A stretch of 64,000 nt of DNA from assembly GCA_041645215.1 (NCBI GenBank), contig JBAZQK010000001.1:118091-182090 (forward strand), read 5' to 3'. Position numbers and translations under genes: made by a program. Each line of letters starts with the position of its first letter. The stretch's first letter is position 1. The DNA is from Patescibacteria group bacterium. GTDB taxonomy: Bacteria; Patescibacteriota; Patescibacteriia; Veblenbacterales; UBA10138. A model generated the notes under the pieces. The model did not search any database, was not told the origin of the DNA, and was given only the letters and a program-made list of their open reading frames with translations. Below, piece after piece: positions 2,478-60,238 of the stretch.

Positions 2478-2565
2478 TTTTGCATTTTTAATTGTCCCGC
2501 TTTGCGGGATCTCGCAAAGCGATGATAATTTTGATTTTTGATATTTACATTTTACATTTCCCATT

Positions 2566-2961
2566 ATGGCACCCAACGACCAAGCCCAAGATTATGAATC
2601 CGAGTTAGCCGCGGCGAGGCAACAGGAAAGGTTGCAGCAAATGCAAGCGGAGCAAGAGGCGCAAAAACCCAGTCGTTTACAGCGGCTGAAGGGTAATGTT
2701 GCGCAGTTAGCTAAACAGCAGGCGAAAAATATGGCTAAGCAGGCCGCTAAACAAGTTGCCAAGCAAGCTATAAGACCGGTGGCTATTTGGGTGGCAACTG
2801 GAATAGCAGCTCTTTTAGGCAATCCGATTACTTGGTTTGTTTCATTCGCGCTGCTTATCATCGTTTTTGGCTACTGGTGCGTTCAGCCGGCAACTAATAT
2901 CCCTAATTGCGCTGGGATAGTAGGTTGGGGCATTGTTGATATATTTAAGGTTGTTTTTTAG
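2566..2961 (+). CDS. Hypothetical membrane protein, Gln/Ala/Lys-rich coiled N-terminus and C-terminal TM hairpin
   Basis: Low-complexity QQAKNMAKQAAKQVAKQA then TM helices AIWVATGIAALLG / FVSFALLIIVFGYWC. Confidence 0.4.
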   Translation: MAPNDQAQDYESELAAARQQERLQQMQAEQEAQKPSRLQRLKGNVAQLAKQQAKNMAKQAAKQVAKQAIRPVAIWVATGIAALLGNPITWFVSFALLIIVFGYWCVQPATNIPNCAGIVGWGIVDIFKVVF

Positions 2962-3069
2962 TTTAATTTGTATGGATAAGTGTTGTATTTTGGGAAATTG
3001 TGAAATTGTGGTTTGATTAGTATTATTATAACGTGATTTTTTCAAAGGAATGTTAATTTATATATAAAA

Positions 3070-4608
3070 ATGTGCAATCTAGTTAAATTAGTTGTTTTCA
3101 GATCATTTTATGGCGGAATTTTATTAAGTATTATTTCCGTTACGTTTTTGTTATTCCCATTACAGAAGATTGCAGCGGCCGACCCAATTCAAGACAGGTG
3201 TTGGTTGCAAGAAAACTGTGAGTCATATAATGGCATCTGGGGTAAAAGCGATAATTATAAAAAACTTTATGGTAATGGACAGGCTGATGACTGGAGTCAG
3301 AAATTTTGTGATAACATTGGGGCCGATAAAGTTACGGCTCGTTGTTTTGCCGGTAATCCAACCCTGCCGCTGCAAGTCGGCATACCCGGGGTTACGGAAA
3401 AATTTTGTTCCAGTTTTAATTTAGGCAGTGAGCCGACCGCTTGTAAAATTGACGATGATTGTAAAGCCAAAAGTTTAGGTACTTGTCAGCCTGGGATTAA
3501 AGGCGGGTTCCCAGGTTATGTGGCGGCCTTTTATAAGTTTTTCGTGGGTTTTATGGCGGTGGTGGCGGTGGTGATGATTATGTGGGGCGGGTTTAAGCGA
3601 ATAATGGCCGCTGGCAGCGCGGAAAAAATAAAGGACGCTAATGGTACGGTTTTTGCCGCTATTATTGGTTTGGTGTTAACTTTAGTGTCTTATACTTTGC
3701 TTAATTTAATAAATCCACGCTTGGTGGCTAATATTTTGCCGTTAATGGAAAAAGTGCGGCCGGAAATTTTTGGCTTTTGTCCAAGTTATGAAAAAAATAA
3801 GTCCTTGTATGAGGCTGGGTATTTAAAATTTTTATGCGGCAGTGGCAAGAATGTGAATAGAACTTGTTTTACTGATGATGATTGTCCGCCTGACGGTGAG
3901 GTCAAAGGTAAGTGTGTGGAACGGGCTATGAGCTTTAATAACCCAGGGGATAATACTTGTGGTAAAAAGATGGTTTTTAGCGGCCGTGAATGCACCGGTA
4001 TGGAATGTCCTTCTGGACAGGGTTGTTTTAAAAATCAAGCCAGCAATAATCCTCCGTATGCTTGCGACAACATTATGCTCCAGGGAAATCTCAGCGGTAT
4101 ACGGGTTAATAAAATGGATGCCATCTTGGTTTGTAACAACGGCAGCGTGAGTGGTTATAATTGTGGCATGAAAGATGCTAACGGGACGGTTAGTGATAAT
4201 TTAGATGTTAAGAGTAAGAGCAGTTATGTTATTACTGGCTGTTGGACACCGGATACAAACAGCGAGCTTAAGTATCGTACCTTAGACACAAAATATTGTG
4301 AAAATGCCGGCGGTCTTAAGGGTATAGCCTTGGCGATTGAGAGGGAATCTACGGGCTGTGACGATTGGTATATTGTTGATGCTTCGTCTTGTTGGTCAGT
4401 CACCAAGAGAGTTACAGACGGAGACGGCAATTATGTTATATGGCCCCACTCGGCTGCACCTTTTTGTGTATATGATTTGTTTACCGCCGAAATGAATTTT
4501 CAAAAAGTTGATAAGAGCAAATTATTTTACCCTTTTGATAGCGATGGCAAGGTCAAAGCAATAAAATGTGATATAAATGTAACAAATAAAGAATTACCTG
4601 ATTTATAA
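3070..4608 (+). CDS. Large Cys-rich secreted/membrane protein with central pilin-like two-helix hydrophobic core (paralogue of 7863..9158)
   Basis: Signal peptide; >35 Cys; core YKFFVGFMAVVAVVMIMWGGFKRIMAAGSAEKIKDANGTVFAAIIGLVLTLVSYTLLNLINPRLV shared with 7863 ORF. Confidence 0.6.
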   Translation: MCNLVKLVVFRSFYGGILLSIISVTFLLFPLQKIAAADPIQDRCWLQENCESYNGIWGKSDNYKKLYGNGQADDWSQKFCDNIGADKVTARCFAGNPTLPLQVGIPGVTEKFCSSFNLGSEPTACKIDDDCKAKSLGTCQPGIKGGFPGYVAAFYKFFVGFMAVVAVVMIMWGGFKRIMAAGSAEKIKDANGTVFAAIIGLVLTLVSYTLLNLINPRLVANILPLMEKVRPEIFGFCPSYEKNKSLYEAGYLKFLCGSGKNVNRTCFTDDDCPPDGEVKGKCVERAMSFNNPGDNTCGKKMVFSGRECTGMECPSGQGCFKNQASNNPPYACDNIMLQGNLSGIRVNKMDAILVCNNGSVSGYNCGMKDANGTVSDNLDVKSKSSYVITGCWTPDTNSELKYRTLDTKYCENAGGLKGIALAIERESTGCDDWYIVDASSCWSVTKRVTDGDGNYVIWPHSAAPFCVYDLFTAEMNFQKVDKSKLFYPFDSDGKVKAIKCDINVTNKELPDL

Positions 4609-4626
4609 TAATGCACGTGTATCTTC

Positions 4627-4652
4627 AAGCCTCTTATTGCAAGAGGCTTTTG
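4627..4652 (+). terminator. Rho-independent terminator after Cys-rich gene
   Basis: AAGCCTCTTattgcAAGAGGCTT followed by TTTG TT. Confidence 0.6.
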
Positions 4653-4703
4653 TTGTTAAATTGGATTAATTCTTGTATAATATAATAAGGATTAAATGAA
4701 TTT

Positions 4704-4787
4704 ATGTTGGATAATCTTCGTTATTTTTGGAAAAATGTGGATAAAAAAAAGTTTTTAATAGTCTGGATTAATTTGAATTATAAATAG
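4704..4787 (+). pseudogene. Duplicated 5' fragment of the TolB-like gene (27 codons, MLDNLRYFWKNVDKKKF...), diverged copy of 5447..5530
   Basis: ATGTTGGATAATCTTCGTTATTTTTGGAAAAATGTGGATAAAAAAAAGTTTTT vs ATGTTGGATAACCTTCGCTATTGGTGGGAAAATTTGGACAAGAAAAAGTTTTTT at 5447. Confidence 0.55.
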
Positions 4788-4789
4788 AC

Positions 4790-5095
4790 TCGGTGATGTC
4801 ATTTCCGTCCCGTATCAAGTGCGGGATAAATTCCAACGGGAATCTGGGATCCCTTATTTTTGAAGGACTTACAAATATAGATTCCGTATCCACCGCTACG
4901 CGGGGCAGGCAAGTACGGAATGACAAGGATATTTTTTAAATCCGCAAGTCCTGTTAATATTAAAACAGCGCCGTTAAAGTTATTGGAGGTGTTTTTTGTT
5001 GCGTGGGTTGTCATCCTGAGCGCGAGCGAAGGAGCTCATAGATTCCTCAGCCCTCCTAAGGAGGGCTGAGGAATGACACTACTTAGTACTTTCAG
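4790..5095. repeat. Palindrome-rich noncoding segment (GTCATTCC...GGAATGAC type hairpins; perfect 15-bp stem ATTCCTCAGCCCTCC-taa-GGAGGGCTGAGGAAT; degenerate MITE-like copy with AGGACTTAC...GCAAGTCCT ends at ~4862-4978)
   Basis: Inverted repeats read directly from sequence; no credible ORF (track ORF 4799..5014 rejected). Confidence 0.5.
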
Positions 5096-5113
5096 AGTTG
5101 GCTAAATTAGGCT

Positions 5114-5142
5114 TTGTCAAAAAGCTTAAATTATGCTATAAT
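5114..5142 (+). promoter_or_regulatory. Sigma70-like promoter TTGTCA-N17-TATAAT; -10 ends 6 nt before ATG 5149 (leaderless transcript predicted)
   Basis: TTGTCA 5114-5119, TATAAT 5137-5142. Confidence 0.5.
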
Positions 5143-5148
5143 TTATTT

Positions 5149-5391
5149 ATGCAATCACTATTAATTAAGTTTTCGCCGGCTTTATTTTGGGATATTGATA
5201 GAGATTCTTTAAATTTTAAAAAACACCGTCAGTTTGTGATTGAGCGAGTGTTGAAATTCGGCGACTCCTCAGACTGGCAGGCCATAAAACAATTTTATGG
5301 TTTACCAGCCATAAAAAAAGTGGCTCAAACCAGCCGTGATTTAGATGATAAAAGTCGTAATTTTTGGCGGATTATGTTAAAAATTAAGTAA
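5149..5391 (+). CDS. Small conserved hypothetical protein (FWDID...FVIERVL..G..DW domain, commonly found as C-terminal module of HTH proteins)
   Basis: MQSLLIKFSPALFWDIDRDSLNFKKHRQFVIERVLKFGDSSDWQAIKQFYG...; start chosen at Met18 of track ORF because promoter occupies 5114-5142. Confidence 0.45.
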   Translation: MQSLLIKFSPALFWDIDRDSLNFKKHRQFVIERVLKFGDSSDWQAIKQFYGLPAIKKVAQTSRDLDDKSRNFWRIMLKIK

Positions 5392-5446
5392 AAATTAATG
5401 ACTGTTTTAACGCCGCCGGGAATTAAATTTTTACGGCTAGAAATAT

Positions 5447-6718
5447 ATGTTGGATAACCTTCGCTATTGGTGGGAAAATTTGGACAAGAAAAAGTTTTTT
5501 GGAGCCGTTACGGTTTTAACAGTTATTATCGGTCTGGGTTTTGTTATTTATTTAATTTGGCGTCCGGAAAGGCCGTCATCGCCAACCAATGTGAATTTGC
5601 CCGGAGAGAGCGGTTTCCCAATAGGCGCTCCCGGCGGGGTAAATGTGGCTGAACCGGGTGAAATCACTTTACCGTCAACCGAAGGAGTAACTCCGCCGCC
5701 GAGCGGCGGCGAGTTGCCGCCGGTAATCGCCAGCGGCGGCATTACTCTGACCGCGGTGGTAAATGACCAAGCAACCGCTTTCCCCGTATTTAGCGGCAGC
5801 GCCGTGCGTTATTATGACCCGCGTGAATGTGGTTTTTACGAAATAACCGGCGACGGCCAGCGCGCCGCCTTGACTGATGCTGCTTATTGCAGTGTTAATA
5901 ATATGACTTGGTCGCCAAATACCACGGGCGCGGTTTTGGAGTTTCCCGATGGTTCCAATGTGGTTTATGATTTTAGAACTAAGAAGCAATATTCTTTGCC
6001 TCGGGAAATGGAAAATTTTTCCTGGTCGCCGGATAGCGGTAAAATTGCCGGCAAGTTTATGGGTGACGATTTGGGAGACAGATGGGTGGTTACGGTTAAC
6101 AGCGACGGCTCGGCTTTAACCGGGGTGGAGCCAATGGGCGATAACGCCGACAAGGTCAATGTGGAATGGTCGCCGAATAATCAGGTAATTGCTCTGTCGC
6201 GAACCGGTGAACCGTCCGGCGCTTTTACCCAGCAGGTGTTATTGGTTGGATTTAATCAGGAAAATTTTAAAGGTTTGTATATTGATGGCCGTGGTTTTCA
6301 GCCTAAATGGACGCCGGATGGTAAAAGATTGTTATATTCGGTATTCAATGATAAAACCAATTTTAAACCGTCACTTTGGCTGGCTGATGCGGCTCCCGAT
6401 AGAGTTGGCTTAAATAAACAAAATCTTAACTTAGCCACTTGGGCTGATAAGTGCAATTTTAGCGGGAGCTATGCTTATTGCGCCGTACCAACCAATTTGC
6501 CGGACGGGTCTGGTTTAGTGCGGGAATTGGCTAATGGCGCACCGGATTCGTTGTGGCGGGTGGATTTAACCACGGGCGCGATTAATATTTTAGCTACTCC
6601 GGTCGCCGATGACGGTCAAGGTCTGACCGCGGCCAATATAACAATTTCAGCTGATGCCAAATGGCTGTATTTTACCGACAGCGACGGTAAGCTAAGGAGT
6701 GTGAAGTTGCAGGAGTAA
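5447..6718 (+). CDS. TolB-like beta-propeller (PD40 repeat) protein, N-terminally membrane anchored, Pro/Gly-rich linker
   Basis: Repeated WSPD/WSPN/WTPDGK motifs (FSWSPDSGKIAG, VEWSPNNQVIAL, PKWTPDGKRLLY); TM helix near N-terminus. Confidence 0.55.
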   Translation: MLDNLRYWWENLDKKKFFGAVTVLTVIIGLGFVIYLIWRPERPSSPTNVNLPGESGFPIGAPGGVNVAEPGEITLPSTEGVTPPPSGGELPPVIASGGITLTAVVNDQATAFPVFSGSAVRYYDPRECGFYEITGDGQRAALTDAAYCSVNNMTWSPNTTGAVLEFPDGSNVVYDFRTKKQYSLPREMENFSWSPDSGKIAGKFMGDDLGDRWVVTVNSDGSALTGVEPMGDNADKVNVEWSPNNQVIALSRTGEPSGAFTQQVLLVGFNQENFKGLYIDGRGFQPKWTPDGKRLLYSVFNDKTNFKPSLWLADAAPDRVGLNKQNLNLATWADKCNFSGSYAYCAVPTNLPDGSGLVRELANGAPDSLWRVDLTTGAINILATPVADDGQGLTAANITISADAKWLYFTDSDGKLRSVKLQE

Positions 6719-6745
6719 CAAAAAATATCAAAATTCAAATTTCAA

Positions 6746-7126
6746 ATGTCAAACCAAGCACGAAATCCCAATGACAAAAAGTATGATTTAAAGGAAAGAA
6801 CGTCTAAATTCGGCGAAGACTTGATAATTTTTGTTTCAAAATTAGAGCGAAGCCCCATAAACAATCCCTTAGTTAGTCAATTGGTCAGGTCTTGTACAAG
6901 CATAGGAGCAAATTATATGGAGGCTGATGGTGCGGAATCAAGGCCGGATTTTAAACATAAGATTGCTATTTGCAAAAAAGAGGCCAAAGAAACCACGCAT
7001 TGGTGTAAAATGTTAGCCGCAGTTAATCCGCAGTACGGAGAGCATTTTGCTGGTTTTTATAAAGAAGCGCATGAGTTGGTTTTAATTTTTTCTTCCATTT
7101 TGAATAATATGGTTAAGTCAAAATAA
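6746..7126 (+). CDS. Four-helix-bundle protein (23S rRNA IVS protein family), second intact copy
   Basis: LVRSCTSIGANYMEADGAESRPDFKHKIAICKKEAKETTHWCKMLAAV, ~125 aa. Confidence 0.8.
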   Translation: MSNQARNPNDKKYDLKERTSKFGEDLIIFVSKLERSPINNPLVSQLVRSCTSIGANYMEADGAESRPDFKHKIAICKKEAKETTHWCKMLAAVNPQYGEHFAGFYKEAHELVLIFSSILNNMVKSK

Positions 7127-7169
7127 TTTTAGTCATTTAGAAATTGATTTGTCATTTGAGCTTTGAAAT

Positions 7170-7826
7170 TTGGATTTTATGAATAAGCATGGTTTCTGGT
7201 TTTTACTAATTGCTTTAGGAGTTGTTGGTTTTGCGTTTTATAGTTTAAAGCAGCAATCTTCAAGCTTTAAGCCGGCGCTTAAACCGGTTAATATTATTTA
7301 TCCCAAGTTACCCGGTGAAGTGACAATTTTTCCGGCTGACCCCCAGCTCGGCGAACGACAGGCACCGGTAAAAATTATTGAATTCGGTGATTTTCAATGT
7401 CCATTCTGCGCGCAAACCGCGCCGATTTTAGAACAGACGGTTAAAAACAATAAAGGCAAAGTTGAGCTTATTTGGAAGGATTTTCCGCTCCCTGATCACC
7501 CCGAGGCCTATGCCGCCGCCGCCGCCGCGCAATGCGCCGGTCGGCAAGGAAAATTTTGGGAATATCACGACCAATTATTTTTGAATCAAAGTTCTTTGGG
7601 TCAAGATTTGTATAACAGGATAGCTTCGTCTTTAAATTTAAATATGGAGAAATTTTCCAGTTGCCTAAGTAATCACGAAGCTGTACCGTTAATAAAGCAG
7701 AATATTGACGAGGCTCGAGCCATTGGGGTTGATAGCACGCCGTATTTTGTGATAAACGGGCAAGTTTATAGCGGTATAATAAGCCAGGAAGAGTTAAATT
7801 CCCTTATTAATTCAGTTAGTAAATAA
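7170..7826 (+). CDS. DsbA-family thiol:disulfide oxidoreductase, membrane anchored
   Basis: N-terminal TM helix, thioredoxin-fold active site FGDFQCPFCAQ (CxxC). Confidence 0.75.
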   Translation: MDFMNKHGFWFLLIALGVVGFAFYSLKQQSSSFKPALKPVNIIYPKLPGEVTIFPADPQLGERQAPVKIIEFGDFQCPFCAQTAPILEQTVKNNKGKVELIWKDFPLPDHPEAYAAAAAAQCAGRQGKFWEYHDQLFLNQSSLGQDLYNRIASSLNLNMEKFSSCLSNHEAVPLIKQNIDEARAIGVDSTPYFVINGQVYSGIISQEELNSLINSVSK

Positions 7827-7862
7827 AAATCATTTATACTATCAGTTGGGCAGTAATTATTT

Positions 7863-9158
7863 ATGAAGCTATCAAATATTAGTAAGATATTAATTCTATA
7901 TATCACGGTATTTTCTTTTTTGGTTTCATATAATTATGTTTTGGCGCAAACTGATTTAGAACAGTGTAAGAGCGCTGGTTATACTGGAATAGGTGATTGT
8001 AAACAAAATGAACAAGGTGATGGTATGTGGTGCGAATCAACTATTAATACAGCGGAAAAACTAAAGCCAATTATTACATGTGAAGGTTGTCCTACTTATA
8101 AATTATGTTGTCAAAAACCAGAAGATCCTAATAATGCAGCACCATTAGCTCCTAGAGTACCGGGGTGTATAGAAAAGATACCTGACGCCCAAACAACCCC
8201 ACCTGAACCCATATATTTCAAGCCCAGCGTTACCATACCCGGCACAATTTTTACAGCCGGCAAAGAGATTGAGATAACCGGCGAATCTTTTGCTCAATAT
8301 GTCAGCGGCTTTTATAAATTCTTTGTCGGTTTTATGGTGGTGGTTACGGTGGTGATGATAATGTGGGGCGGGTTTAAGCGAATTATGGCCGCCGGTTCAG
8401 CTGAAAAAACTAAAGACGCTAATGATACAATTTTTGCCGCCATTATTGGTTTGGTTATTACTTTAATTTCTTATACTTTGCTTAATTTAATAAATCCGCA
8501 GTTAGTTAATTTAAAAACCTTAGCAATACAATCAATTAAAGCGGAAGAATTTAGCATACGTCCGGGTATATTGGAAAATCCTGGTCTTAAAAGTACTGCT
8601 GATGAATATAAAATAATGTCATGTCCCTCAAGTGCGGAATTACTGGCTGGAGTTAAATTTTTTACAACAGGTTATTATAAGCCCAACTTTGAAGATAAAG
8701 AGCGGTACCAAAGTTTTTGGTGTAATATTGCCATGCAGTGTTCTTGCCCAAATGGTAGGGAAGTTGAATATTCGTGTCAGTCAGGGACCATGAAGTGGCA
8801 ACCCTGCAAAAAGTTTAATAATGATGTACCTTACTGCAATGCAGCAGCAGAAATGCGCACGCCACCACCGCCACCAGGACAGACAACACCCACTAAGACA
8901 CCGGAACCTTGGGTTACAGTAGCACAGAAAGGATGCAATATGACCGGAACGGTATTGAAGGTGTTTGGTTCTAAGCAGGATGGGGTAAATACTGCCGTGT
9001 GGTATGTGCATGATACAGGGGGCGCTATCACCGGGCGGCGGATTGATCTATATTTCGGTCAAGGTCCAAGTGCCTATCAGCAAGCCGTGAAAAGTACGGG
9101 TATTGTCACAGTAAAGAAGTGCCCAGATAACGATATAAGTAAGTGTCCATCTTTATAA
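7863..9158 (+). CDS. Cys-rich secreted/membrane protein with pilin-like two-helix core and C-terminal 3D (MltA/YuiC-like) domain; paralogue of 3070..4608
   Basis: Signal peptide; core YKFFVGFMVVVTVVMIMWGGFKRIMAAGSAEKTKDANDTIFAAIIGLVITLISYTLLNLINPQLV; C-terminus VHDTGGAITGRRIDLYFG matches 3D-domain motif. Confidence 0.6.
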   Translation: MKLSNISKILILYITVFSFLVSYNYVLAQTDLEQCKSAGYTGIGDCKQNEQGDGMWCESTINTAEKLKPIITCEGCPTYKLCCQKPEDPNNAAPLAPRVPGCIEKIPDAQTTPPEPIYFKPSVTIPGTIFTAGKEIEITGESFAQYVSGFYKFFVGFMVVVTVVMIMWGGFKRIMAAGSAEKTKDANDTIFAAIIGLVITLISYTLLNLINPQLVNLKTLAIQSIKAEEFSIRPGILENPGLKSTADEYKIMSCPSSAELLAGVKFFTTGYYKPNFEDKERYQSFWCNIAMQCSCPNGREVEYSCQSGTMKWQPCKKFNNDVPYCNAAAEMRTPPPPPGQTTPTKTPEPWVTVAQKGCNMTGTVLKVFGSKQDGVNTAVWYVHDTGGAITGRRIDLYFGQGPSAYQQAVKSTGIVTVKKCPDNDISKCPSL

Positions 9159-9165
9159 ACATAAA

Positions 9166-10518
9166 ATGAGTGCGCATTCAGCTGTTGTTTATTTCTGCTC
9201 CAACTGCGACGCCCAATACCCCAAATGGGTGGGGCGTTGTACGGAATGCGGGCAGTTTGGCACAGTATCAACCACGCCGCGGGTTATTAGTAAAGTATCC
9301 AAGACTACTGCCTTTTCTACCGTTGCCAGTACTGTTCTGCTGGGCAATACAGCTGATGTACAGTTAGTCAAGCGTTTTAGTTCCGGCTTGATGGAGGTTG
9401 ATAGGGTTTTAGGCGGTGGTTTGGCTAAAGCCAGTGTGGTTTTGCTTAGCGGCGAACCGGGGGTTGGTAAATCAACCTTGGTTTTAGTTTTGGCGGAAAA
9501 ATGCGGCGCTGATGTTCTATATGCTTCGGGCGAAGAATCAGTTGAGCAAGTACAAGGCCGAATAAAGCGTTTAGGTTTAACAGCTGGCCGGCTTCATTTT
9601 ACCACTGCCACTGATATTCGTGCCGTAGTTGAATCAGCCAAGCAACTTAAACCAGCTTTATTGGTAGTTGATTCATTGCAGACTATGCAACTGGAAGATA
9701 TTGACGGCGCGGCTGGTTCACCCACTCAAACCCGCGGCGTTTTAAGTGAGCTAATTGCCCTGGCCAAGAATTTAGGCATGATAGTTTTAGTCATTGGTCA
9801 TGTTACTAAGGAGGGGGTGGCGGCTGGACCCAAAGCCATTGAGCATTTAGTGGATATTGTTTTGACTTTGGATGGAGCCGAACATCAAGCTTTGCGATTT
9901 TTGCGCGCCAGTAAGAATCGGTTTGGCCCGACTGATGAAGTTGGCGTGTTTCAGATGGCGGAAAATGGATTAATTGAAGTTAGTAATCCATCCGCCCTGT
10001 TTTTAGCCGAACGTCACAGCGGGCCCGGCTCTTGCGTCGCCGCCTTATTAGAAGGTTCGCGCAGTTTGTTAATAGAAGTCCAAGCTTTGGTTACCAGAAC
10101 CAGCAACATAAAATATCCCAAGCGCGCGACCACCGGGTTTGACCTGAATCGCTTGCAGATGTTATTGGCGGTCTTGGGCGAACGAACGCCAATAAAACTT
10201 GATTTTAAAGATGTTTATGTTAATTTAGCCGGTGGTTTTAAAAGTCGCGAGCCGTCGCTTGATTTGGCGGTTTGCTTAGCCGTAACTTCCGCCGCGCTTA
10301 AAAAAACCTTACCGCGCGATTTGGTTGTTTGGGGCGAGGTTGGCTTAGGCGGTGAGGTCAGGCCGGTGGTGGCAATGGAACGCCGCTTGGCCGAAGCCGG
10401 CCGATTAGGGTTTAAACAGGCGCTAACGCCAAAATTGCCAGCCAACGCCAAGTTGCCCAAAGACATAGAGCTAGTATTAATAAGAAATTTAACAGAAGCG
10501 GTGGAGTGGGTGAGATAG
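9166..10518 (+). CDS. radA: DNA repair protein RadA/Sms
   Basis: N-terminal Zn ribbon CSNCDAQYPKWVGRCTECGQ, Walker A GEPGVGKST, Lon-like C-terminal domain, 450 aa. Confidence 0.9.
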   Translation: MSAHSAVVYFCSNCDAQYPKWVGRCTECGQFGTVSTTPRVISKVSKTTAFSTVASTVLLGNTADVQLVKRFSSGLMEVDRVLGGGLAKASVVLLSGEPGVGKSTLVLVLAEKCGADVLYASGEESVEQVQGRIKRLGLTAGRLHFTTATDIRAVVESAKQLKPALLVVDSLQTMQLEDIDGAAGSPTQTRGVLSELIALAKNLGMIVLVIGHVTKEGVAAGPKAIEHLVDIVLTLDGAEHQALRFLRASKNRFGPTDEVGVFQMAENGLIEVSNPSALFLAERHSGPGSCVAALLEGSRSLLIEVQALVTRTSNIKYPKRATTGFDLNRLQMLLAVLGERTPIKLDFKDVYVNLAGGFKSREPSLDLAVCLAVTSAALKKTLPRDLVVWGEVGLGGEVRPVVAMERRLAEAGRLGFKQALTPKLPANAKLPKDIELVLIRNLTEAVEWVR

Positions 10519-11426: not shown

Positions 11427-13487
11427 TTATTCAGGATGAAAATCAATATTTTTTAATTGCTGTTTGATTTGCGGCCATTTGGTAAAATTAGGGTCAGTTT
11501 GAATTGTATATTGAGCCGCGTTTCTAACAGTTACTAAAAGTTCGGCGTTTACTAAATCAGCGTACTTAAGATTAAAATAGCCCGATTGGATATCACCAAG
11601 TAAACTACCCGGTCCGCGTTCGGCCAGGTCATATTCAGCCAGGGCAAAGCCGTTTTGGTATTTAACCATAGCTTGTAAGCGTGATGGTAAATTATTTTTT
11701 TGGTCCGTAAACAATAAACAATAACTTTGTCGGCTTGAACGCCCGACTCGGCCGCGCAGTTGATGCAGTTGGGCAATGCCAAAATGCTCCGCCCCTTCAA
11801 TCGCCATTATGGTGGCCTCCGGTACATCTACCCCAACTTCAACCACCGTGGTTGTTACCAGTATTGGAGTAGTGCCATTTTTAAAATTGTTCATCGCTTC
11901 AGTTTTTTGCTGACTGGACATTTTGCCATGCAACCGGCCAATTTTTATAGATTTAAACACCTCTTGGGCTAACCGGTCAGCTTCAGTCGTGACGGATTTT
12001 TGACCGCCTTCGTCGTCGTCTTCAATTAACGGGCAAATTATAAAAACTCGGTTTTGTTCAGCTATTTCTTGTTTAATTAATTGATAGGCCGCGGTTCTTT
12101 GATTTGGTTCTACGATTTTAGTAGTTATGGGCAGGCGGCCGCTCGGCATTGATTTGATTAAGGAAATATCCAAATCACCGTAGATTGACAGAGCTAACGA
12201 ACGGGGAATAGGCGTGGCCGATAATGATAAAAGATGAGGGTATAGAGCTTGTGGCTGGTTCATTAAATAGCGCCTTTGCTCCACGCCAAAACGGTGTTGC
12301 TCGTCGATTATGACAAATCCCAGCCGAGCCCATTGTATAGTTTTTTGCAATAAACTGTGCGTGCCGACAATAATGTTTATTTTATCTTCAGCCAACAATT
12401 TTTTTATGCTGGCACTGGTAGTTTTTTTATTGTCGTTTGGTCGGTTTAGTAAATGATAGCCGCGTGATAATAAAGCCAACGATATGGGGTAATCTTTAAA
12501 TAAATCAGCCAGGGTATGAAAATGCTGTTTGGCCAGAATTTCCGTGGGCGCTACCAAGGCCACTTGCCAGCCGGCTTTAACGGCGTTTAAGGCCGCAATG
12601 CCCGCCACGATGGTTTTACCAGATCCAACATCACCTTGTAATAACCTAAACATTGGCTTGGCTTGTCCCAGGTCTTTAATAATTTTCCAGGCGGCCTGTT
12701 TTTGGTCAACTGTTAACTGCCAAGGCAGGCCGGCCACAAAATTTTTAGTGTCAGGCGAGTAGTCAATAACCGGTGACTTAAGCTGTCGCAATGATTGGCG
12801 GGCCAACTTGGCCTGCAAGTTGATTAAGTATAGTTCATCAAAAGCCAAGCGGCGACGAGCCTGTAGGATGTCGTTGTGGTTTTTAGGAAAGTGTAATTGA
12901 ATTATAGTTTGGTTTAAATTTATTATTTTAGCTTGGTTTTTTATGGCGGCGGGCAACCAATCATTTATTCCTTTGGCTAAAGGTAATACTTTATTAATTT
13001 GTGTTCTTAACCAGTGGTTGTTTAACAAGCCGTGTAATGAATAATAGGGCACCAGCCGGCCAGTATGTACGCCATAGGTTTTGCTTGGTTCGTAGGTTGG
13101 TTGTTCCAGTTGCAAGCCGTAGTTAGACAGTGATAGTTTGCCCGACAGGAGAATTATATCGCCGGCTTTTAAATTTTTTATCAGATAAGGCTGATTAAAC
13201 CAAATAGCTTTAATACTGCCGGTATCGTCGCTTATTACGGCCTGGGTAATGGTTAAACGGCTTTTAAACGAGCGGCGAGCGCTTATTAGGTTAACGCGGC
13301 CTTTAATGGTAACTTTATCGCCGGCGGTTAGTTGTTTAATAGGAGTGATTTGTGAATAATCCTCATATCTAATGGGTAAGTGCCACAGTAAATCATTGAC
13401 TGTAAAAATTTCCAAGGTAGCCAGTTTTTTGGCCATGGCCGGGCCAATGCCGCTGATATTGGTTATTGGGTTTAATAGCGAAAGCAT
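11427..13487 (-). CDS. recG: ATP-dependent DNA helicase RecG
   Basis: Wedge-domain N-terminus, helicase motifs GDVGSGKT, DEQHRFGV, 686 aa. Confidence 0.9.
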   Translation of the reverse strand: MLSLLNPITNISGIGPAMAKKLATLEIFTVNDLLWHLPIRYEDYSQITPIKQLTAGDKVTIKGRVNLISARRSFKSRLTITQAVISDDTGSIKAIWFNQPYLIKNLKAGDIILLSGKLSLSNYGLQLEQPTYEPSKTYGVHTGRLVPYYSLHGLLNNHWLRTQINKVLPLAKGINDWLPAAIKNQAKIINLNQTIIQLHFPKNHNDILQARRRLAFDELYLINLQAKLARQSLRQLKSPVIDYSPDTKNFVAGLPWQLTVDQKQAAWKIIKDLGQAKPMFRLLQGDVGSGKTIVAGIAALNAVKAGWQVALVAPTEILAKQHFHTLADLFKDYPISLALLSRGYHLLNRPNDNKKTTSASIKKLLAEDKINIIVGTHSLLQKTIQWARLGFVIIDEQHRFGVEQRRYLMNQPQALYPHLLSLSATPIPRSLALSIYGDLDISLIKSMPSGRLPITTKIVEPNQRTAAYQLIKQEIAEQNRVFIICPLIEDDDEGGQKSVTTEADRLAQEVFKSIKIGRLHGKMSSQQKTEAMNNFKNGTTPILVTTTVVEVGVDVPEATIMAIEGAEHFGIAQLHQLRGRVGRSSRQSYCLLFTDQKNNLPSRLQAMVKYQNGFALAEYDLAERGPGSLLGDIQSGYFNLKYADLVNAELLVTVRNAAQYTIQTDPNFTKWPQIKQQLKNIDFHPE

Positions 13488-13732: not shown

Positions 13733-13846
13733 CCCCAGTAGGAACCCAGATAGTAGTCCCGCGGGGCAGGACACTACTGGGCAGGTCGAACCTACATTAC
13801 AAGCTCCGCAAGCTCGCGTTCTCTGCCTGCTGGCAGGTATTCTTCA
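13733..13846 (-). pseudogene. tRNA-Arg-derived partial copy (shares 36 nt anticodon-arm/T-stem segment with tRNA-Arg) with a ~40-nt hairpin inserted in the T-loop; cannot form D-arm
   Basis: GAACGCGAGCTTGCGGAGCTTGTAATGTAGGTTCGA identical to neighbouring tRNA; followed by CCCAGTAGTGTCC..GGGACTACTATCTGGG hairpin. Confidence 0.45.
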
Positions 13847-13858
13847 CCTAACCAAATC

Positions 13859-13930
13859 TGCCCCCGGTAGGAATCGAACCTACATTACAAGCTCCGCAAG
13901 CTCGCGTTCTATCCATTGAACTACGAGGGC
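13859..13930 (-). tRNA. tRNA-Arg (anticodon GCG), no encoded CCA
   Basis: Manual fold: GCCCTCG/CGGGGGC acceptor, D-stem GTTC/GAAC, anticodon loop TTGCGGA, T-arm GTAGG-TTCGATT-CCTAC. Confidence 0.75.
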
Positions 13931-53501: not shown

Positions 53502-53723
53502 ATGGCTAATACTGTTCAATTAACCCTTGACCGTGTTGAAGGCGACCAGGCAATTTTAGTTTTTAGCGACCACATGCAAATTACGCTCCCGCTATCCTTA
53601 ATGCCTATCGGTACGACGGAAGGCTCGGTAGTTCGTTTGTCTATTGTCAAAGACGCTGACGCGACATTTGACCAGCAAGAGCAAGCTCGGCATTTGCTTA
53701 ACGAAGTCTTAAAGTCTAATTAA
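53502..53723 (+). CDS. Small hypothetical protein (DUF3006-like), translationally coupled to VanW-like gene (TAATG overlap)
   Basis: 73-aa ORF, stop overlaps next start. Confidence 0.35.
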   Translation: MANTVQLTLDRVEGDQAILVFSDHMQITLPLSLMPIGTTEGSVVRLSIVKDADATFDQQEQARHLLNEVLKSN

Positions 53724-55612
53724 TGAGTATACCAAAGCGTTATTTTTCGCCGCGTTGGCTGGGGGTGATTTTTCCCGTAGTTTTTTTGTTGCTACTGGGT
53801 GCCAGTTTATCGATTTATAATTTAGCCTATGCGACTCGAATTTTCCCCGGGGTGGCAATGGGACAAATTAGTTTGGCTGGTTTAACGGCTAGTCAGGCGG
53901 AAAGTAAATTAAGTTCGGTTTGGAATGATTATAGTCAGGCGGGAATAGTTGTAAAATCAGACAAGTATCAGGTTACCGTGCCGGCAGTTTTAAATTCCAC
54001 CAATTCTGATTTAGCCGTTAATTTAATGTATGTTTATTTGGCTCAAGCCGCTACGGCGGCTTATCAGGTTGGGCACAGCGGCGTTTGGTATAATGATTTA
54101 GTTGAGCCGGTGTTAATTAGATTATGGCCGACCTTTGGTCAAATAAAATTGCCGGTTGACATTGATATAAATCGCCTAGTTAAATATATCAGCAGTAGTT
54201 TGCCCGAACTTGGCGCAAAATCAATTCCGGCGCGTTTGCGTTTAAATACCAACGACAAACTGGAAATAATCCCTGAAACTATAGGTAGAGAGATTGATGC
54301 CGTAGATTTAGGAATAAAGTTGCAGGCCAAAATTGAGACCATGTCAGCCGGGGCCATTGAATTAACGTTAAAATCTGAACCAGCCGCCGTGACCGCGCAA
54401 GAGTTAACAGTTTTGTTGCCGGCGGCGCAAGCCGCGTTAAAGCCGGTAAAATTAATTTTTACTTTTGCCGATGCGACTTGGGCAGCTCAACCAAGTGTGT
54501 GGCAGGCTTGGTTGCAGCCAGTGTTGAACCCGGACCAATTGGCGATTAGATTAAGCAGCGAGGCCGCCACTGGATTTTTCAGCGCCATCGGCCAGACAGT
54601 TAATCAGCCGGCGCAGGATGCTAAATTTGAGATTAAAGATGGCCGGGTAGAATTATTTCAAGCCAGCCAAGAAGGTCGGGAGGTTGATATTTCGGCCACC
54701 TTGGCTCAAATCAATGAGAAACTGGCGGCGATAGACAATAATATAACCTGGCCTTTGGTAGTTAAATCAACCCAACCAAATGTAACCACCGCCGAAGTTA
54801 ACAATCTGGGAGTTACTGAAATTATTGGTACCGGTAAGTCTAATTTTGCCGGTAGTCCGCCCAATCGCCGCCATAATATTAAAGTTGGGGCTGATAAGTT
54901 GAACGGCGTAATTATTCAGCCGGATGAAGAATTTTCGCTGGTTAAAACCTTAGGCGCGATTGATGCGGCATCCGGTTATTTGCAGGAATTAGTTATAAAG
55001 GGCAATAAAACTATTCCGGAGTACGGTGGCGGCTTGTGTCAAATTGGCACCACTACTTTTCGGGCGGCTTTAAGTTCAGGGTTGCCGATTTTAGAGCGAC
55101 GCAGCCATTCTTACCGGGTGCCTTATTATGAACCGGCTGGTACTGACGCCACCATTTACGACCCCAGTCCGGATTTTAAGTTTAAGAACGATACCGGCCG
55201 GGCAATTTTGATACAAACTAAAATCAAGGGCGATGAGTTGATATTTGAATTTTGGGGAGCTAAGGACGGGCGGCAGGCGGAGCAGACCAAGCCGCGCATC
55301 TATAATATTGTTAAACCGCCGCCAACTAAAATTATTGAAACAACTGAATTGCCGGTTGGTCAAAAAAAATGCACGGAAAAGGCGCATACGGGAGCGGATG
55401 CCGAATTTAATTACAAAGTTACTTATCCGAGCGGTGAGGTTAAAGATCAAACATTTCGCAGTCATTATGTACCATGGCAGGAGGTTTGTTTGCTGGGGGT
55501 GGCTAAATTAGATTCAAGTGAACAAAATTCAACCAGCGATAGTTCAGCCGCAACTCCGTCCGCCTCGTCCGATTTACCAGCCGCTGATATTTCTGGTCAA
55601 ACCGGAAATTAA
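53723..55612 (+). CDS. VanW-domain protein with N-terminal TM anchor and peptidoglycan-binding-like repeats
   Basis: VanW signature NRRHNIKVGADKLNGVIIQPDEEFSLVKTLG...GGGLCQIGTTTFRAALSSGLPILERRSHSY...DATIYDPSPDFKFKNDTG. Confidence 0.75.
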   Translation: MSIPKRYFSPRWLGVIFPVVFLLLLGASLSIYNLAYATRIFPGVAMGQISLAGLTASQAESKLSSVWNDYSQAGIVVKSDKYQVTVPAVLNSTNSDLAVNLMYVYLAQAATAAYQVGHSGVWYNDLVEPVLIRLWPTFGQIKLPVDIDINRLVKYISSSLPELGAKSIPARLRLNTNDKLEIIPETIGREIDAVDLGIKLQAKIETMSAGAIELTLKSEPAAVTAQELTVLLPAAQAALKPVKLIFTFADATWAAQPSVWQAWLQPVLNPDQLAIRLSSEAATGFFSAIGQTVNQPAQDAKFEIKDGRVELFQASQEGREVDISATLAQINEKLAAIDNNITWPLVVKSTQPNVTTAEVNNLGVTEIIGTGKSNFAGSPPNRRHNIKVGADKLNGVIIQPDEEFSLVKTLGAIDAASGYLQELVIKGNKTIPEYGGGLCQIGTTTFRAALSSGLPILERRSHSYRVPYYEPAGTDATIYDPSPDFKFKNDTGRAILIQTKIKGDELIFEFWGAKDGRQAEQTKPRIYNIVKPPPTKIIETTELPVGQKKCTEKAHTGADAEFNYKVTYPSGEVKDQTFRSHYVPWQEVCLLGVAKLDSSEQNSTSDSSAATPSASSDLPAADISGQTGN

Positions 55613-59716: not shown

Positions 59717-60238
59717 ATGAAACATCGTTTTTGGCGCAAGAATTGGCCCGGGCCCTTGGTGGTAGCCGGATTGTGTCTGGCTGTGCAGTTTTTATTTCCG
59801 CAGTCAGCTATGGCCGAGCAGTTGTTAACCCAGGCGCAACCCAATCGGCTAGTGGCGGAAACCGGTATTAACCAAACCGGTCAGGCGATTCAGGCGGCTG
59901 ATGATAAACCAATAGTCTTGCCATTACCGGTGATAAACAATATACCAGCCCGCTATGTTATGAAAGTTCCGGTAACAGCTTATTCGTCAACGGTTGATCA
60001 GACTGACGACACGCCGTTCATTACTGCCAGCGGTAGCCGCGTTCGCTCTGGTATAGTGGCGGCTAATTTTTTACCAATGGGTACTCGCATCCGTATGCCC
60101 GATTATTTTGGCGATAAAGTTTTTGTAGTGGAGGACAGAATGCATTCTCGTTTTTCTAACCGGGTTGATGTTTGGATGGAAACTCGCGGCGAAGCGGTTG
60201 ATTGGGGCGTTCGGCGTTTAAATATTGAGGTTTTATAA
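59717..60238 (+). CDS. 3D-domain protein (MltA/YuiC-like cell-wall hydrolase domain) with signal peptide
   Basis: VTAYSSTVDQTDDTPFITASGSRVRSGIVAANFLPMGTRIRMP...VVEDRMHSRFSNRVDVWMETRGEAVDWG. Confidence 0.7.
   Translation: MKHRFWRKNWPGPLVVAGLCLAVQFLFPQSAMAEQLLTQAQPNRLVAETGINQTGQAIQAADDKPIVLPLPVINNIPARYVMKVPVTAYSSTVDQTDDTPFITASGSRVRSGIVAANFLPMGTRIRMPDYFGDKVFVVEDRMHSRFSNRVDVWMETRGEAVDWGVRRLNIEVL

Follow-up and report, generated by a model that had tools for sequence, protein, structure and literature searches.

A VirB2-like membrane hairpin shared by two proteins of a Patescibacteria type IV secretion locus undergoes recurrent gene conversion across related genomes

Patescibacteria encode arrays of VirB2-like pilins of type IV secretion systems (T4SSs), in which 2–11 small pilin genes lie near virB4, in tandem or one gene apart (PMC12102498; PMC10633639). 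The pilins of an array are divergent in sequence, with a mean identity of 25% and a maximum of 54% (PMC12102498). In the one species tested, the T4SS was essential for epibiotic growth (PMC10633639, PMC11665869), and the arrays are essential in Southlakia. Here, we analysed a stretch of 64,000 nucleotides (nt), referred to as the window, from contig JBAZQK010000001.1 (GenBank assembly GCA_041645215.1, positions 118,091–182,090 of the forward strand) of a Patescibacteria group bacterium (Veblenbacterales; UBA10138). Two genes of a T4SS cluster in the window, gene A (3070–4608) and gene B (7863–9158), both on the + strand, shared an internal segment of about 200 nt. The segment encoded a hairpin of two membrane helices assigned to the T4SS_pilin (VirB2-like) family, and in 13 genomes it showed repeated gene conversion over short tracts, with strong purifying selection thereafter. 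Homogenisation of T4SS genes has a precedent in the Trw system of Bartonella (trwL/trwJ), for which Nystedt and colleagues reportedly described in 2008 that paralogues of pilus components are homogenised by recombination, so that copies group by genome. Whole genes are said to be tandemly amplified there, and their exposed parts to diversify.

The locus resembled the Patescibacteria arrays (Quinonero-Coronel et al. 2025, PMC12102498; Wang et al. 2023, PMC10633639) in having PF18895 genes beside virB4, PrgI and TrsD. It was likewise a chromosomal, relaxase-less, MPF-FATA-like cluster with more than one pilin-domain gene and with radA and recG as neighbours (PMC12102498). In contrast to the arrays, its hairpins were located inside proteins of 431–512 residues with large ectodomains, were 86% identical and evolved in concert. 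The two genes were 4.8 kb apart and separated by four open reading frames (ORFs; DUF6922, PD40, IVP and DsbA), or by two or three in relatives, a spacing outside that of an array. Unlike in the Bartonella system, only an internal 200-nt membrane module was homogenised, and this between two differing architectures. VirB2-like arrays and concerted evolution of T4SS pilus genes are thus known, and what differs here is that embedded hairpins are kept matched across surface proteins, one of them a predicted hydrolase. A literature search on gene conversion, Patescibacteria and pilins found no paper reporting concerted hairpins, and one on VirB2, Patescibacteria and lytic transglycosylases found none beyond the reviews already used. 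A classic array was seen in a Magasanikbacteria contig (L034, 4891–9805), with at least 8 small, divergent pilin-domain ORFs contrasting with the two-gene arrangement; two of these ORFs shared an identical C-terminal half (6719–6928, 7134–7343).

The window contained one strong direct repeat, between 3517–3725 and 8298–8506 (83% identity over 209 nt). The repeat was in frame, comprising 210-nt segments at 3517–3726 in gene A (core copy 1) and 8298–8507 in gene B (core copy 2), both on the + strand. The 70 core codons were 86% identical in protein and 82% identical in nucleotides. A blastn comparison of the two genes aligned 166 of 194 positions (86%, E = 5e-61), and the rest of both genes was unalignable. 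In register, identity fell to 19% in the 90 nt upstream of the core and 39% in the 90 nt downstream, which is the random level. In protein, weak similarity extended about 55 residues beyond the hairpin on its N-terminal side, and the whole proteins were alignable over about 154 residues only (51% identity). The original prediction, made from the sequence alone, of a near-identical cassette of about 200 nt inside two genes with unalignable flanks was therefore confirmed at 82–86% DNA identity. Both of the long exact runs that it had quoted were present (23 nt at 3580–3602 and 29 nt at 3688–3716). A third copy of the core was found in the window neither by DNA nor by protein search, and the repeat search of the window found no repeats or mobile-element genes bracketing the core. 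An assembly artefact was rejected as the source of the repeat, since three independent assemblies agreed and the copies differed by 14–18%.

Gene A encoded 512 residues, and NCBI names the identical protein 'pilin'. Its product consisted of a signal-like hydrophobic N-terminal segment, a cysteine-rich N-ectodomain, the pilin-like hairpin and a cysteine-rich C-ectodomain. Gene B encoded 431 residues, with a signal-like N-terminus, a cysteine-containing N-ectodomain, the same hairpin and a C-terminal domain predicted to be an MltA-like (3D) lytic transglycosylase. All cysteines were outside the hairpin (8 before and 18 after it in A, plus one in the signal segment; 8 and 10 in B). Core copy 1 spanned transmembrane helix 1, the loop KRIMAAGSAEKIKDANG and transmembrane helix 2. 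The loop is basic and reads KRIMAAGSAEK.KDAN. AlphaFold 2 (AF2) models placed the hairpin helices at residues 146–179 and 184–213 in A (predicted local distance difference test score 76.6) and at residues 140–175 and 180–210 in B. The models and hydropathy thus showed the architecture of PF18895 in both proteins, namely a signal-like segment followed by two hydrophobic helices with a short loop. The precomputed PF18895.6 matches of the sequence collection included both A and B, and orthologues and relatives scored 28.8–38.3 bits, above the cut-off of 26.6 bits.

In NCBIfam, both hairpins matched best to the Mbov_0395 family of pilin-like conjugal transfer proteins (NF045849), of which they covered 63–70 of 80 profile positions. 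This family includes the pilin-like protein of Mycoplasma integrative and conjugative elements, a monoderm conjugation system. Unlike A and B, the Mycoplasma proteins are small and stand alone, and the scores of the window's hairpins (30.2 bits for A, 34.4 bits for B) were below the cut-off of 40 bits. The canonical VirB2/TrbC profile (PF04956) was matched by neither A nor B, and one relative reached 17.5 bits against a cut-off of 27.9. The layout was that of canonical VirB2, TrbC and TraA pilins, with a signal peptide followed by a pair of hydrophobic helices that a short basic loop connects; VirB2/TrbC pilins of about 70–120 residues have no extra domains, in contrast to the 512 and 431 residues and large flanking domains seen here. 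A Foldseek search returned the Aeropyrum conjugation pilus as a non-significant fold match (E 5.6), and a structure search gave no informative fold match for the ectodomains of gene A. The word 'pilin' used in the original prediction is apt for the T4SS (VirB2-like) fold, and not for the pilin of a type IV pilus. Its picture of a conserved anchor with variable exposed domains fitted the architecture well, with a common hairpin and differing ectodomains. VirB2 and TraA pilins have both termini outside. Judging from this topology and the positive-inside rule, the loop would be cytoplasmic and both flanking domains extracellular.

A-type orthologues (36–72% identical) occurred in many Patescibacteria, as did B-type genes, and the hairpin was present in 68 of 68 homologues. 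Gene conversion was evaluated in the 13 genomes that had both an A-type and a hydrolase-type gene, on a single contig in 8 of them. The flanks matched by gene type. The hairpins grouped by genome in all 78 genome pairs, at both the protein and the DNA level, and the informative core sites supporting grouping by genome, grouping by type and cross patterns numbered 2112:240:185 for nucleotides and 773:36:15 for amino acids. Lineage-specific residues were at core positions 11–13, 16, 30, 35, 37, 50, 55 and 60. The number of identical codons exceeded the codon-usage null of the respective genome in 10 of the 13 (p<0.003). Since this null was somewhat lenient (between-genome identical-codon fraction 0.51 against about 0.42 expected), an empirical baseline and synonymous-only quartets were added. 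The latter used codons with the same residue in all four sequences and were confined to 8 genomes of similar GC content (0.36–0.42). Synonymous patterns were by genome in 226 cases, by type in 17 and cross in 21.

The proportion of synonymous differences (pS) within the 13 pairs ranged from 0.12 (JBBIVB) up to saturation. In JBBIVB the core tract was 98% identical (196 nt) and in CALFUV 94% (174 nt), with fully identical sub-segments at nt 43–135 of the core (JBBIVB, CALFUV) and nt 43–84 (CAZMMW). The high-identity tracts abutted flanks of random-level similarity; their limits varied between genomes, and some tracts ended inside the hairpin. The codon family used for Ser34 (AGY or TCN) was the same in both paralogues in 9 of 11 genomes, JAUYKG and CAZRDN included, which is informative because the choice between AGY and TCN is invisible to selection on the protein. 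Arg28 was encoded by AGA in both copies in just a single genome. Taken together, the grouping by genome, the silent-site patterns, the codon excess, the tracts and the serine codons showed recurrent gene conversion. The proposal that the segments were exchanged by conversion, rather than being just an ancient duplicate, thus held as a family-wide process.

The mosaic pattern reaches beyond the A/hydrolase pair, into other Patescibacteria lineages. Six contigs (L024, L026, L029, L033, L035 and L038) carried adjacent pilin-domain genes of 260–490 residues with differing flanks and near-identical hairpins. The hairpins of L029 were 97% identical over 229 nt (pS 0.06 in this tandem pair), and those of L026 were 100% identical in protein. 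One partner in these lineages had a weak lysozyme-like match.

The explanation that we favour, and consider probable, is that A and B are T4SS components around one VirB2-like hairpin, which has been homogenised by repeated gene conversion and retained because both have to fit the same machine. A and B would be components of a chromosomal, conjugation-derived T4SS, each built round the same hairpin of 70 residues. Short conversion tracts between the hairpin-coding segments, sometimes covering part of the hairpin, would be followed by strong purifying selection. Both proteins may be inserted in, or assemble together on, a common platform in the membrane or a common pilus-like polymer of the T4SS, and a shared partner of this kind would favour matched hairpins, so that converted copies are retained. 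Gene A would provide a disulfide-rich exposed domain, possibly for host contact. Gene B, or its VanY or lysozyme counterparts, would provide a VirB1-like wall-cutting function missed by profile searches (PMC12102498). The DsbA encoded between A and B would form the disulfides of both.

Several observations weigh against this explanation. Regarding the identity of the hairpin, the cores of A and B scored 24.8 and 26.2 bits against PF18895, both just under the gathering cut-off. Solved VirB2 and TraA pilins were not matched by sequence, and a search of Protein Data Bank sequences with the hairpin profile gave chance matches only (E>0.7). In the test set, 5 of the 13 pairs were distributed over two contigs of one metagenome-assembled genome (JACRFM, CAZMMW, JAUYKG, CALFUV, CAZRDN) and so depended on binning. 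Three genomes (CAYVOI, JAUYKG and CAZRDN) had no synonymous excess, their cores being 80–91% identical in protein.

The remaining opposing points concern the window's own pair, in which the last conversion is old and the signal partial. Over the 70 core codons, pS was 0.41–0.46, the synonymous divergence (dS, Nei-Gojobori) 0.59–0.71 and the nonsynonymous divergence (dN) 0.08–0.10, giving a dN/dS of about 0.1–0.13. Of 55 identical degenerate residues, 36 shared their codon, where the codon usage of the window predicts 23 (p ~1e-4), and 19 showed synonymous differences. The resulting identical-codon fraction of 0.65 was modest relative to the empirical between-genome baseline of 0.51. Ser34 was AGC in A and TCA in B, from different codon families. 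In comparison with the nearest relatives (G2, comprising L045 and L053; JBFOMO, L052; JACRFM, L006 and L007), the second helix (nt 133–210) grouped by gene type, and the loop residues grouped by genome. Both long exact runs were nearly invariant in all eight sequences from the four genomes of this clade. They thus reflect slow evolution of the module throughout the clade, and were rejected as a sign of a recent event here. The original prediction of a recent exchange was therefore not supported for this locus. Its statement that synonymous sites are conserved held in part: codon identity in the core exceeded the codon-usage expectation, and modestly the between-genome baseline, at a dS of about 0.6–0.7.

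The alternative that survives best is co-evolution at the protein level without DNA exchange, in which the hairpins touch each other or a common partner and parallel amino acid changes are selected. The window's Ser34 codons fit this, as do the loop residues, which alone group by genome among the nearest relatives, and the three genomes with saturated synonymous sites, whose cores share lineage-specific residues. The absence of a synonymous excess in these three implies that such co-evolution may contribute. However, an old conversion followed by a dN/dS of about 0.05–0.1 equally explains the saturated cases, and the serine codon families match in two of the three. Selection on the protein also does not predict the synonymous-only patterns by genome, or tracts of 98–100% DNA identity between genes with unalignable flanks, and the three high-identity genomes already show the shared changes as multi-site blocks that include silent sites. 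Protein-level co-evolution may thus add to the pattern without explaining the synonymous evidence, and we regard it as an unlikely sole cause.

Ancient duplication followed by purifying selection only, with the hairpin as the most constrained part of both proteins, would account for the strong conservation across the family (mean column identity 77% and 11 invariant columns in an 18-sequence core alignment). The conservation of the exact runs in sister genomes and the dN/dS of about 0.13 also agree with it. It predicts grouping by gene type, though, and the hairpins grouped by genome in every pair; the identical-codon excess in 10 of 13 genomes and the synonymous patterns contradict it as well, which makes it very improbable. 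Equally improbable is a recent independent acquisition, by which a mobile hairpin module was inserted separately, or lately duplicated, into two existing genes in each lineage. The edges of similarity are indeed sharp and roughly at the domain limits in most genomes. However, the hairpin occupied the same place in every A-type and hydrolase-type orthologue, with none lacking it among the 68 homologues; the tract limits vary from genome to genome and sometimes cut the hairpin, and the core is bracketed by neither repeats nor mobile-element genes.

Least credible of all is pilin antigenic or phase variation, the analogy drawn by the original prediction, whereby silent cassettes that bear the core would recombine with an expressed gene. 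Direct repeats could support recombination, and one related strain is divergent in the exposed part of A (see below). However, only two copies occur in the 64 kb and the adjoining 3.3 kb, and both are full-length genes with syntenic orthologues in other genomes. What is exchanged is the conserved membrane hairpin, while the exposed flanks are unalignable; the fold is that of a T4SS pilin, and the three assemblies available for the strain show a single base difference over 14.6 kb. The suggested search for further silent cassettes yielded none in the window or in the 3.3 kb upstream; a metagenome scan that used a degenerate pattern of the core recovered relatives, but neither a third copy nor the strain itself. 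The locus therefore differs from Neisseria pilE/pilS, in that neither the window nor the metagenome scan contained promoterless silent cassettes and the exchanged segment is not the variable exposed part.

Two other assemblies (L001 and L002) represented the strain of the window, one of them reaching 3.3 kb further upstream. As they belong to the same strain, they are uninformative about heterogeneity in the population. Contig L045 (JGI 3300028028) of a related strain, aligned to 2498–3647 of the window, was about 98–100% identical at 2498–2612 and around 2830–3000, upstream of gene A. It was only about 70–75% identical, with insertions and deletions, in the Gln/Ala-rich middle of the 131-residue gene preceding gene A and in the N-ectodomain of A. 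Such a mosaic at strain level points to recombination or to rapid evolution of the exposed segments. On the basis of this one short contig, the exposed part of A may vary between strains by ordinary recombination. Gene B of this related strain (L053) was 95% identical in protein to that of the window.

The C-terminal domain of gene B is a predicted MltA-type lytic transglycosylase. Gene B matched the Pfam 3D family (PF06725) with 32.5 bits, above the cut-off of 23.8, at 8991–9086 on the + strand (residues 377–408, the HDTGGAITGRRIDLYFG region). In Foldseek comparisons, the domain matched MltA structures with E-values of 4e-4 to 2e-2 and a probability of 1.00. The residues D384 and D395, candidate equivalents of the catalytic aspartate of MltA, were nearly invariant among B-type homologues. 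In sister genomes, the gene in the position of B had a C-terminal 3D, VanY/M15 peptidase or lysozyme-like domain. This variety of hydrolase types suggests a VirB1-like wall-cutting role for the position. Gene B resembled the VirB1- and MltA-type hydrolases of T4SSs in carrying an MltA-like 3D domain within a T4SS cluster. It differed from them in that the domain is fused to a pilin-like hairpin and is not a soluble enzyme or a lipoprotein, and it was undetected by the VirB1, TrsG and CD419 profiles used in PMC12102498. An ORF at 59717–60238 was considered as a second 3D-domain protein and rejected, having no Pfam match.

The recurrent matching of the hairpins in many lineages is genetic evidence for a shared partner or for co-assembly, and the locus supplies candidates for those parts of the T4SS that breach the wall and contact the host. 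We tentatively suggest a broader possibility, which we hold with less confidence than its rejection: in the ABY1 class and other Patescibacteria, the hairpin might be a portable docking or polymerisation module that mounts differing ectodomains, among them wall-cutting enzymes and cysteine-rich domains for host contact, on one essential T4SS structure, with gene conversion keeping the mounted subunits compatible. If so, the 'missing VirB1' would be a pilin-fused hydrolase, and the surface structure of the T4SS would be a heteropolymer with enzymes aimed at the host cell wall. The hairpins are predicted to be exchangeable within a genome, and not between genomes.

The T4SS genes near the pilin-domain genes, namely VirB4, PrgI and TraC-like/TrsD, were all within 6 kb upstream. 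The window began inside a gene for a VirB4-like ATPase, of which the C-terminal part remained (21–1031, + strand; P-loop_TraG, 80.6 bits). In L001 the gene is complete and reached 354 bits with the profile of the VirB4-like CD1110 family of NCBIfam (cut-off 325), and the 3.3-kb upstream extension additionally encoded PrgI (VirB3-like) and a TraC-like/TrsD protein. Downstream of virB4, a conserved membrane-anchored protein of 205 residues (1409–2026, + strand) held the same position in L001, L003, L005 and L052, and a conserved protein of 131 residues with a hydrophobic C-terminal half (2566–2961, + strand) was syntenic just upstream of gene A; neither had a Pfam or NCBIfam match. Gene A was followed, as in all relatives, by a beta-propeller protein of the PD40/TolB type that carries a membrane anchor at its N-terminus (5447–6718, + strand; Pfam PD40). 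A DsbA-like thiol-disulfide oxidoreductase (7170–7826, + strand; Thioredoxin_4 111 bits, DSBA 67 bits) was encoded directly upstream of gene B, a position kept in relatives. To the right of gene B were the syntenic genes for RadA/Sms (9166–10518, + strand; TIGR00416, 446 bits, cut-off 403) and the RecG helicase (11427–13487, − strand), the latter identified from the Pfam families of the identical gene in L001.

The gene order was the same in L003 (GCA_018817715.1), L005 and L052: two large proteins, PrgI, TraC-like, VirB4, two small proteins, the A-type protein, the PD40 propeller, DsbA, the hairpin-plus-hydrolase protein, RadA and RecG. The named relatives were Kerfeldbacteria and Veblenbacteria. 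A location of radA and recG beside the T4SS is typical of the class ABY1 (PMC12102498), and the cluster agrees with the chromosomal T4SS lacking a relaxase that is known from Patescibacteria (PMC12102498); the bacterium would be ABY1-like.

Five small genes of the four-helix-bundle family 23S_rRNA_IVP (PF05635) were interspersed among the T4SS genes, at 976–1206, 2106–2477 and 6746–7126 of the window and at 846–1217 and 2006–2392 of L001. Each unit was about 420 nt long and had AT-rich inverted repeats at its ends (2084–2107/2528–2551; 6730–6753/7155–7178). The unit at 2079–2495 was 86% identical to L001 819–1235, and the syntenic clusters of L003 and L005 were without IVP genes. The units look like small mobile cassettes. 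In L003 and L005, the A-type gene directly adjoins the PD40 gene, and in the window an insertion (4609–5446) lay between the two. This insertion contained a DUF6922 ORF (5098–5391), a perfect palindrome of 16+16 nt (5042–5074) and a 58-nt copy of the start of the PD40 gene (4699–4756 against 5442–5499, 84% identity). L052 had the same insert together with a HepT/nucleotidyltransferase toxin–antitoxin pair. Outside the T4SS cluster, the window encoded a cell-wall-related surface protein of 629 residues with VanW and PG_binding_4 domains (53723–55612). An Rfam search of the whole window detected four tRNAs and nothing else, and gave no credible match in the spacer at 4560–5460. An exact 37-nt copy of the inner part of tRNA-Arg(gcg) (13859–13930, − strand) was located at 13786–13822; this partial copy could be an integration footprint or a tRNA fragment.

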